Notes: a model not told the origin generated them from the letters alone. DNA of 43,538 nt from a virus (IMGVR_UViG_2687453364_000004), one strand, 5' to 3'; positions 33,284 through 34,911 are shown, counted from the first letter of the stretch. Made by a program: numbers and translations.

Positions 33284-33985
33284 CTATTTCATCGCTCCTT
33301 TCAGCCCGAACTTAGCTTTGATTTCTGCGATCTTCGCCAGAGCCTGTGCACGATTTAGAGGCCTACCGCCCATGACAGGAAGTTGTTTTACTGGTTCAGG
33401 TATAGCCTCACCACGGTTAATTCGCGCGGTCATACAGGCCAGTTCATCGGCAGCCTTGCGCCGTAATTCCGCGTCAGTCAACGCATTGGCCCGCATGTTC
33501 TGATACAGGTTGGTAACCAGCCAGTAGTGCGCGTTTGATTTCCACGGATAAGACTCTGCATCCGGATACAGACCACGCTTCCGGCAATACTCGTAAACCA
33601 TATCAACCAGCTCGCTGACGTTTGGCAGCCCGGCGGTAACGGATGCTTCTTCCCGGCACCATGCAACAAACTGCCCGGGTGATGGCAGAAATGGTCTATT
33701 CTGCCGACGGGCAACACGCATTCCGTCGCTCACCTGCTCCATCGTGGTGATCCCGTTTTCCCGGAAAGCCAGAACCCACTGGCGGCGGATTTCGTTCAGT
33801 TCGTTCTGGTCACGATTAGCCAGGCTCGCCGGGAAAGTTGCCAGTAACTGGCTGAATACACCGTTGATTATCTGCGCTACCTGCTGTACCTGCGGCTTTT
33901 CGTCGTACTGTTCCGGCATGTTGTTGGCGATCCGACGCATCTGCTCACGGTCAAAGTTAATCATCTGTGCGGCGATGTTTTTCAT
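33284..33985 (-). CDS. P: replication protein P (DnaB helicase loader)
   Basis: 233 aa, MKNIAAQMINFDREQMRRIANNMPEQYDEKPQVQQVAQIINGVFSQLLATFPASL... near-identical to lambda P. Confidence 0.95.
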   Translation of the reverse strand: MKNIAAQMINFDREQMRRIANNMPEQYDEKPQVQQVAQIINGVFSQLLATFPASLANRDQNELNEIRRQWVLAFRENGITTMEQVSDGMRVARRQNRPFLPSPGQFVAWCREEASVTAGLPNVSELVDMVYEYCRKRGLYPDAESYPWKSNAHYWLVTNLYQNMRANALTDAELRRKAADELACMTARINRGEAIPEPVKQLPVMGGRPLNRAQALAKIAEIKAKFGLKGAMK

Positions 33986-34911
33986 AGATCCACCCCGTAA
34001 ATCCAGTCTGTGTTTGTCAGGTCGAGTTTTGGTTTGCTAGCTGTCACGCCTGCCTGTTGCTTGTTACGGTTGATTTCGAGTTGGGTCCACTTGTCGCGGA
34101 GTTTGGCCGGACTTAGCACGTTACCGGACCAGAAGTTGTCCTGGCATGCCCAGCGGAACAGCACGCACATGTCGCGGTGGTTACGTCCGTCACGTTCACG
34201 CATCAGGCGGATATCGTTAGCCCACCCTGCAAAATTCGGTTTTCTGGCTGATGGCGCGATGGTCTTCACCATGTCAAACATCCACTCTGCGGCGGTCAGG
34301 TCTTCTGCTGTCCCCCACTTGCTGCCGCTCTGAATTGCAGCATCCGGTTTCACCACAGGAAGATCGTTTTCTGGTTGGTCAGAGGATTCGCCAGAATTCT
34401 CGGACGAAAAAGGTTTTATATTGTCTTTTGTTAGTTTGTCTTTTGTGTTTACCTGATTCGGGTAAACGCCTTTACCTGATTTGGGTAAACTTTTTTTACC
34501 TGATTCAGGTAAATTTACCTCTTTCAGGTAAACTTTATTTTTCTTACCTGATTCGGGTAATGTTGACCATTCACTGACCACATTATTAATGCCGGTATTC
34601 CGCCCGCTCTGAATAAAAATCCCACGCTTTACCAGAACACTTTTTGCAGCAGAACACTTGTGCGGCAATATCCCGGTTAATTCGGAAAGTTGCTCGTTGC
34701 TAACCCAATCCAGTTTTTTATTAAAGCCATATGTTTTGCGCATGACAGCCAGAAAGACCAGAAGCTGGTGCTGTGTTAATCCGGCCAGCATCACAGCTTC
34801 CAGCAACTCATTTGCAATGCGCGTATAACCATCATCGAGATCTGCCACGCGCGGCTCCTTTTGTGCCGCATCCGGCACTGGAAAATTGAATATCTCAGCA
34901 GTGTTTGCCAT
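33982..34911 (-). CDS. O: replication initiator O (chimeric: non-lambda N-terminal DNA-binding domain, lambda-identical C-terminal P-interaction domain)
   Basis: the C-terminal ~125 aa (SSENSGESSDQPENDL...TNTDWIYGVDL) match lambda O; the N-terminal half diverges; start placed at the internal ATG with GGAGG Shine-Dalgarno (MANTAEIFNFP...). Confidence 0.85.
   Translation of the reverse strand: MANTAEIFNFPVPDAAQKEPRVADLDDGYTRIANELLEAVMLAGLTQHQLLVFLAVMRKTYGFNKKLDWVSNEQLSELTGILPHKCSAAKSVLVKRGIFIQSGRNTGINNVVSEWSTLPESGKKNKVYLKEVNLPESGKKSLPKSGKGVYPNQVNTKDKLTKDNIKPFSSENSGESSDQPENDLPVVKPDAAIQSGSKWGTAEDLTAAEWMFDMVKTIAPSARKPNFAGWANDIRLMRERDGRNHRDMCVLFRWACQDNFWSGNVLSPAKLRDKWTQLEINRNKQQAGVTASKPKLDLTNTDWIYGVDL
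34449..34560. repeat. ori: origin iterons (about five copies of a ~18-bp TACCTGATTCGGGTAAAC-like repeat) with flanking AT-rich DNA, inside O
   Basis: TTACCTGATTCGGGTAAAC, TTACCTGATTTGGGTAAAC, TTACCTGATTCAGGTAAAT, TTACCTCTTTCAGGTAAAC and TTACCTGATTCGGGTAA read directly; located mid-O as orilambda is, but the sequence differs from lambda iterons; coordinates +/-2. Confidence 0.75.

Follow-up and report, generated by a model that had tools for sequence, protein, structure and literature searches.

The replication initiator gene O of the lambda-like prophage analysed here (the whole stretch of 43,538 nucleotides is referred to as the window) is a chimera with a sharp internal junction. Its N-terminal part differs strongly from lambda O and is co-inherited with a non-lambda iteron type, the C-terminal part is nearly identical to that of lambda O, and among related loci the C-terminal modules assort freely behind the same type of N-terminal domain. 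The gene very probably represents a two-module initiator of the lambda O type that carries its own origin inside the coding sequence. Taken as a whole, the explanation held with high confidence is that the two modules differ in evolutionary history and were joined by recombination in or beside the conserved TCGTCCGAGAATTCTGGCGAATCCTCTGAC that follows the AT-rich tract of the origin.

The initiator gene and its neighbors are located on the minus strand and comprise the following features:

33982..34911, minus strand: O-type replication initiator gene, 309 amino acids plus stop (open reading frame and translation; Pfam Phage_rep_O)
34916..34921, minus strand: Shine–Dalgarno sequence GGGAGG, 4 nt ahead of the ATG at 34911 (read from the sequence)
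34567..34851, minus strand: region encoding the Phage_rep_O domain (amino acids 21–115), presumed origin-binding (Pfam; 79–85% identity in GZ7 and loci with the iteron motif)
33284..33985, minus strand: P gene encoding the helicase loader (Pfam Phage_lambda_P; about 97% identical to lambda P)
34998..35537, minus strand: YdaT-domain gene in the cII position upstream of O (66% identical to phi80 "cII"; within the non-lambda stretch)

The open reading frame of O extends over 309 codons from the ATG at 34911 to the end of the stop codon at 33982. This start aligns with the MxNxA starts of lambda O, P22 gp18, GZ7 O, and SEN34 O, and the same GGGAG-N-ATG arrangement is found at gene 15 of phi80. Among genomes, the O start codon is annotated inconsistently, giving proteins of either 339 or 309 amino acids. 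The Pfam family PF04492 (Phage_rep_O) matches amino acids 21–115 with its whole profile covered (E = 9.9e-34, 116 bits, cut-off 28.7). The downstream P gene belongs to PF06992 (Phage_lambda_P, E = 3.4e-61), and its start shares four nucleotides with the O stop (ATGA, 33982–33985). The remaining window is that of a lambda-like prophage: positions 3739–21707 match lambda 1–18002 at 97%, and positions 37427–40013 match the gam-bet-exo region of lambda at 96.8%. Strain 4/1-1 of E. coli contains a prophage with 100% identity to the window over 22440–40013 and 41264–43538; an IS3-family element at 40014–41263 in the early-left region is absent from this otherwise identical prophage. The integrase end of the 4/1-1 prophage abuts icd. 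An Rfam scan of the whole 43.5-kb window gave no match.

Five 17-bp dyad repeats (TTACCYRAAWSAGGTAA) are located at 34449–34560 inside the O coding sequence, next to an AT-rich tract:

34544..34560, minus strand: iteron 1, TTACCCGAATCAGGTAA, an extra copy relative to the four of lambda
34515..34531, minus strand: iteron 2, TTACCTGAAAGAGGTAA, in register with lambda iteron 1
34496..34512, minus strand: iteron 3, TTACCTGAATCAGGTAA, in register with lambda iteron 2
34472..34488, minus strand: iteron 4, TTACCCAAATCAGGTAA, in register with lambda iteron 3
34449..34465, minus strand: iteron 5, TTACCCGAATCAGGTAA, in register with lambda iteron 4
34409..34447, minus strand: AT-rich tract, presumed unwinding element (10 G/C in 39 nt, 26% GC)

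Each iteron is an imperfect palindrome of the form TTTACC-N7-GGTAAA. The motif was found neither elsewhere in the 43.5-kb window nor in 100 shuffles; the string TACCTGATTCGGGTAAAC reported in the initial annotation corresponds to the copy at 34449–34466 read on the plus strand. The start-to-start spacing on the sense strand is 29, 19, 24, and 23, as for the five iterons of the Klebsiella phage GZ7, and the four iterons of lambda as well as the four of P22 are spaced 20, 24, and 23. The AT-rich tract opens with ACACAAAAGACA, which is common to lambda, P22, and GZ7. Since iterons 2 to 5 are in register with lambda iterons 1 to 4 and are followed by the shared ACACAAAAGACA, the geometry of the nucleoprotein complex appears to be conserved, with the recognition sequence replaced.

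The junction was located with a single change-point model applied to a codon-aware nucleotide alignment of the window O with lambda O. The features delimited by the comparison with lambda are:

34399..34411, no strand: mosaic junction versus lambda (support interval; best position 34409/34408, equal to lambda 39157/39158)
33985..34410, minus strand: lambda-type C-terminal module (amino acids 168–309), presumed P-binding (near-identity to lambda; role taken from lambda biochemistry)
33294..34448, minus strand: undivided block homologous to lambda, comprising the AT-rich tract, the C-terminal module of O, and P (blastn 94.9%; lambda 39119–40273)

The maximum-likelihood change point falls into codon 168 (2ΔlnL = 259). 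Nucleotide identity to lambda O is 53.9% left of this position and 97.2% right of it, and the sliding identity (50 nt) leaps from 0.42–0.64 to 0.92–1.00. On the protein level, 44% of the aligned positions are identical among residues 1–167, and 140 of the 142 residues from 168 to 309 are the same as in lambda O. The sharp mid-gene breakpoint proposed in the initial annotation was thus borne out, with a step from 54% to 97%; the C-terminus described there as lambda-identical is nearly but not strictly so. The DNA of the C-terminal module differs from lambda at 12 positions, 11 of which are synonymous. Among residues identical to lambda, the proportion of identical codons rises from 49% before the junction to 92% after it, and this step at silent sites indicates that the two parts of O differ in age and not just in constraint. 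The same comparison was made with O of phage 21, which is of the lambda type, and with gp15 of phi80, which is 43% identical overall; the sharp breakpoint was located against lambda.

The junction had been expected next to the iterons. It does lie mid-gene and near the array, but about 40 nt beyond iteron 5, where the AT-rich tract ends, which implies that the entire origin travels with the N-terminal module. Right of the junction, TCGTCCGAGAATTCTG(G/A)CGAATCCTCTGAC is common to lambda, phi80, and the window and is a plausible candidate for the shared stretch used in homologous exchange. The GenBank record of lambda contains misc_recomb features at 39157^39158 and 39165^39166, coinciding with the junction, which we take to be crossover points of laboratory hybrid phages. 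On the other side, lambda homology stops abruptly at the end of P. The non-lambda stretch continues past the O start as far as 37426 and takes in the YdaT/cII gene, a gene of the YdaS/Cro type, and a repressor gene of the cI type. From these limits of homology, two mosaic blocks versus lambda can be delineated, one consisting of the C-terminal module of O with P, the other of the immunity region with the N-terminal module of O and the origin.

Other prophages carrying the iteron were sought in one genome per bacterial species by scanning for two adjacent copies of the motif, with no protein information used. The scan yielded 11 loci in Enterobacterales (Pseudocitrobacter, Kluyvera, two in Enterobacter, Xenorhabdus, Arsenophonus, Providencia, Sodalis, Klebsiella, and two in Pantoea). 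In all 11, the first 115 residues of the initiator are 64–85% identical to those of the window and LPHKCSAAKS is invariant; the N-domain motif LTGILPHKCSAAKS is common to all carriers of the TTACC-N7-GGTAA iteron type. The repeats, 3 to 9 in number, lie inside the O-like open reading frame wherever the gene is intact (ten loci), and in the Sodalis locus, in which the O-like gene is split, they are found in the next fragment. N-domain type and iteron type co-occur in 12 of 12 independent loci. At the position of LPHKCSAAKS, lambda has LPVKRCNEAKL, P22 APTKCSTAKN, SEN34 HHTHCSTAKN, and phi80 another sequence; in all four phages, the iterons differ from those of the window, as does the N-domain motif. 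The O protein of SEN34 is 73% identical to that of the window over amino acids 1–75 and only 38% over amino acids 76–115, and its iterons read TTAGC-N7-GCTAA. The drop in similarity together with the differing iterons points to amino acids 76–115 as a candidate specificity segment.

The C-terminal modules of the scan loci belong to at least four types. Six loci have the GZ7 type with a DnaC-like loader, two have modules associated with lambda P, and two further types were found. The lambda-type module with P is present in the window, in SEN34, and in one scan locus (L021); the P22-type module pairs with a DnaB-like helicase. A Pfam search with five types of C-terminal module, that of lambda included, gave no family match. 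Co-inheritance of N-domain type and iteron type, together with C-terminal modules that assort, is what one would expect of an initiator whose N-domain recognizes the iterons and whose C-domain recognizes the helicase partner. The matching of the N-domain with its non-lambda iterons, as claimed initially, is therefore indirectly supported by the co-inheritance across loci, and the claim of modular exchange gains support from the reciprocal cases GZ7 and SEN34 and from the variety of C-terminal types.

Compared with lambda, the window shares the O–P gene order, the 4-nt overlap, the Phage_rep_O N-domain, the in-gene origin, the 19/20-24-23 spacing, and ACACAAAAGACA; the C-terminal 142 residues are 99% identical and P is about 97% identical. 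It differs in the iterons (four copies of TCCCTC-N6-GAGGGA in lambda versus five of TTACC-N7-GGTAA), in the N-terminal module (44% identity), and in the upstream gene, which is cII in lambda and encodes a phi80-type YdaT/cII protein of 179 amino acids in the window. By its iterons and N-terminal module, the window falls outside the rep-lambda specificity type of lambda, 21, 434, and the Stx phages. Phage 21 O has four lambda iterons, unlike the window. In the Stx phages 933W and P27, the C-terminal module is of the lambda type as well (95.7% nucleotide identity over nt 464–930), whereas their N-domain, about 40% identical to that of the window, and their iterons belong to the specificity type of lambda. 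The O proteins of these two phages have six iterons (PMC7466680), and a variable iteron number is a further trait in common with the window. phi80 resembles the window in its upstream "cII" of 180 amino acids (66% identical to the YdaT-domain protein) and in TCGTCCGAGAATTCTG...CGAATCCTCTGAC after the AT-rich tract; its iterons (TTCCCGAAAACGGGAA, four copies) and its C-terminal module (about 49% identity) are different.

Related N-terminal modules were also found in other combinations. GZ7 O has an N-domain 79% identical to that of the window, five iterons of the same consensus, and the same start of the AT-rich tract, but its C-terminal module is unrelated (18% identity) and its partner is an IstB/DnaC-type AAA+ loader instead of P. 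The prophage initiators of Enterobacter, Kluyvera, and Pseudocitrobacter have N-domains 79–85% identical to that of the window (a range that includes GZ7) and the same iteron consensus; among these related prophages, L013 and L015 have five copies with the window spacing, L023 has four, and L014 nine. In SEN34, a Salmonella phage, a lambda-type C-terminal module (79% identical) is combined with P as in the window, and iterons and recognition segment differ. Gene 18 of the Salmonella phage P22 is similar in its N-domain (54% identity) and in its half-sites (TTTACC/GGTAAA), and the P22 origin has an AT-rich tract with ACAAAAGACAAT repeats. The spacer, however, is 5 nt in P22 versus 7 in the window, the iterons are present in four copies, the C-terminal module is unrelated (15% identity), and the partner is the DnaB-like helicase gp12; spacer, C-terminal module, and partner P place the window outside the P22 gene 18 type.

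The division of O into two functional domains has been recognized since hybrids of lambda with phages 82 and phi80 became available in 1978. With these hybrids, Furth and Yates reportedly showed that the N-terminal part of O sets origin specificity and that the lambda C-terminal part works with lambda P; the lambda-82 hybrids are said to have the same architecture as the window O. The hybrids were made in the laboratory, whereas the window O is natural and very common; the likeness is one of principle, the sequence comparison covering lambda, 21, and phi80.

Two explanations for this arrangement dispense with recombination or with an in-gene origin. O might have diverged as a whole from a lambda-like ancestor, with a fast-evolving N-terminal half and a C-terminal half held by its interaction with P. 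The prevalence of synonymous differences in the C-terminal module does show strong purifying selection, but synonymous sites show the step in identity as well (49% of codons identical versus 92%), the step is abrupt (support interval of 13 nt), GZ7 shows the reverse pattern of a similar N-terminal and an unrelated C-terminal half, and lambda homology has a second abrupt end at the end of P. We regard divergence of the whole gene as barely conceivable. Uniform divergence along O, which had been named as the result that would speak against a chimera, is excluded by the single step, and divergence without recombination was rejected on account of the synonymous-site step and the reciprocal mosaics. 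The repeats, on the other hand, might be a peptide linker selected as protein, with the real origin elsewhere. They encode a repetitive, lysine-rich linker (LPESGKK...), yet the same DNA motif is translated in two reading frames (LPESGK, LPESGK, and LPKSGK in one, VYLKEVN and VYPNQVN in the other), which indicates that the repeat is maintained as DNA and not as peptide. The repeats also show dyad symmetry; in spacing (19/20-24-23) and register they agree with the iterons defined by experiment in lambda, the shared AT-rich tract comes after them, and no further copy of the motif exists in the window. A pure linker is thus very improbable, and this candidate was rejected because of the two frames, the dyad symmetry, and the lambda-like spacing and register.

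For the recombinant initiator with an in-gene origin, a mechanism can be proposed by analogy with lambda. The N-terminal module would determine which origin is recognized: its Phage_rep_O domain would bind in dimeric form to the TTACC-N7-GGTAA repeats, and the bound O dimers may wrap the DNA into an O-some, which would destabilise and open the adjoining AT-rich tract. The lambda-type C-terminal module (amino acids 168–309) would then recruit P bound to the host helicase DnaB. Formation of the O-some and opening of the AT-rich region in lambda have been reviewed (PMC5043065), and the replication mechanism of lambda O is described in further work (PMC7466680; PMC4488673), in the last of which binding of the iterons is assigned to the amino-terminal half of O and reference is made to hybrid O proteins of lambda with phi80 and with 82 (Furth and Yates 1978, J Mol Biol 126:227). 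Iteron binding, unwinding, and P recruitment by the window O are inferred from this analogy, and a physical O-P-DnaB interaction is suggested by the near-identity to the lambda proteins. The literature searched contained no binding, replication, or P-interaction experiment on the O allele of the window, and the iteron string was likewise not found there. A sequence search of solved structures with O gave no related structure, and a single-sequence AlphaFold model was discarded (mean pLDDT 41.5); the boundaries of domains and linker are therefore based on alignments only.

The arrangement is widespread. The N-terminal half with the iterons was detected at ≥95% identity in 2,424 of 5,426 complete E. 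coli genomes, and the whole O gene (≥80% coverage) in 2,368 of them (44%). About 900 further E. coli genomes match only from nt 464, which corresponds to a lambda-type C-terminal half behind another N-terminal half. The exact O protein is present on at least 1,000 contigs, and its cluster at 90% identity has 7,825 members. This protein cluster carries generic names only ("replication protein") and no classical phage name. The full gene is contained in 15 deposited phage records, where it is annotated as replication protein O, and the O genes of the phages PhiR34_1 and PhiR68_2 are 100% identical to that of the window. PhiR68.2 has been used as an infectious, plaque-forming phage (bioRxiv 10.1101/2025.11.03.685801), which lends indirect support to the function of the identical O gene.

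These data bear on two further readings. The arrangement could be real and the copy in the window nevertheless a dead remnant of a defective prophage that initiates nothing. The IS3-family element inserted in the window prophage and absent from that of strain 4/1-1 would fit such a remnant, as would the decay of the origin in other genomes, for example, STEC307 with a 72-bp deletion from iteron to iteron. Since phages that were recovered as virions have the very same O gene (100% identity), and the structural genes match lambda at 97% across 18 kb in a blast block free of gaps, we consider this unlikely. It is more conceivable that lambda itself is the recombinant, the combination of a TTACC-type N-terminal module with a lambda-type C-terminal module being older or commoner and the N-terminal module of lambda a replacement. 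The whole gene is found in 2,368 of 5,426 E. coli genomes versus about 900 with the lambda-type C-terminal half behind another N-terminal half, but present frequency says little about ancestry. We take this as a serious possibility, though we lean slightly against it; it would alter the wording and not the structure or the mechanism. The N-domain had been called foreign in the initial annotation, and it is indeed unlike that of lambda (44% on the protein and 54% on the nucleotide level). According to these counts, however, the allele of the window outnumbers lambda's own N-terminal module, which is the minority form, and the term is lambda-centred.

The O mosaic is already known and represents a standard, annotated, and extremely common case of phage gene shuffling. 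It carries little weight as a discovery and is rather a natural and cleanly bounded illustration of a principle more than forty years old, according to which the N-domain and the in-gene origin travel together and the C-domain travels with the helicase loader. A doubtful possibility is that the five-iteron TTACC-N7-GGTAA origin and the LPHKCSAAKS-type N-domain form a distinct specificity class that is the commonest O allele in E. coli prophages and maybe was never characterised biochemically. If so, it would offer a natural test case for a shift in initiator specificity via half-site spacing (P22 half-sites, with 2 bp more between them) and for the question of whether lambdoid prophages in the same host keep their origins free of cross-talk. 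The lambda origin type is the minority in E. coli prophages, and the work on replication of lambda and the Stx phages covers only part of the natural diversity. The motif can serve as a precise marker, on the DNA level, of one class of initiator specificity in the Enterobacterales. The survey makes the modest addition of tying one iteron motif across this order to one type of N-domain, behind which at least four kinds of C-terminal module occur.

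The change point of O (best estimate 34409/34408) falls in a stretch, window 34399-34411, which corresponds to lambda 39155-39167 and coincides with two misc_recomb features in the lambda GenBank record:

Lambda 39157^39158: misc_recomb feature
Lambda 39165^39166: misc_recomb feature

Both positions are probably the crossover points of classical hybrid phages.

The window's O allele also occurs in E. coli STEC307 (L011, NZ_CP091018.1), where an in-frame deletion of 72 bp at about 640-700 joins iteron 1 to iteron 4, so that two iterons remain; this deletion resembles the classical lambda ori-minus deletions. 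The iteron array is enlarged in two loci carrying the same type of O gene, to nine copies in Kluyvera sichuanensis (L014) and to seven in Arsenophonus nasoniae (L017). The expansion in K. sichuanensis is due to duplication of a 48-bp unit containing two iterons. The deposited O of phage D2 (L012, OM475427.1, 301-1232) is of the window's type over the first ~245 nt and 100% lambda thereafter; the parts do not share a reading frame, and the record lists them as two CDS. The gene is either a recombinant inside the N-domain or an assembly chimera.

The start of O is annotated differently by different sources. The RefSeq/PGAP annotation gives 339 amino acids with an ATG at 35001, which adds window 34912-35001 (minus strand) and overlaps the ydaT stop codon in an ATGA, whereas phage depositors give 309 amino acids starting at 34911. 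Judged from the homologues and the GGGAGG site, 34911 is preferable to 35001. The region at and upstream of the O start contains the following features:

Window 34998-35537, minus strand: YdaT-domain protein (179 amino acids), occupying the cII position
Window 34886-35005, plus strand (antisense relative to O and ydaT): promoter-like site (TTGAAT-17-CATAAT, with TG) and hairpin

The YdaT-domain protein shares 66% identity with the "cII" of phi80 (180 amino acids), and a YdaS-type protein is present in the cro position. The promoter-like site covers the O start and is directed away from O; the number of promoter-like sites was no higher than expected by chance. Beyond the site lies a strong hairpin (−25.2 kcal/mol, z = −2.7). 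Lambda oop RNA and the annotated M3 RNA of phi80 are located at the same position as this site and hairpin.

In lambda, P is followed by ren and the nin genes, whereas in the window an inverse autotransporter is encoded directly after P:

Window 28769-33034, minus strand: inverse autotransporter (1421 amino acids) with IAT_beta and Big_1/Invasin_D3 domains
Window 27689-28732, plus strand: BD-FAE / alpha-beta hydrolase gene, inside the prophage

The autotransporter gene is a cargo gene within the early-right operon; at 30663-31725 it has a 357-bp unit in three tandem copies that are 98% alike. The hydrolase gene adjoins it on the opposite strand. The prophage of E. coli 4/1-1 lacks a 1.25-kb insertion that the window carries at 40014-41263, and is otherwise identical. 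The ORF of the insertion at 40044-40862 encodes an rve integrase core and is therefore an IS3-family transposase.
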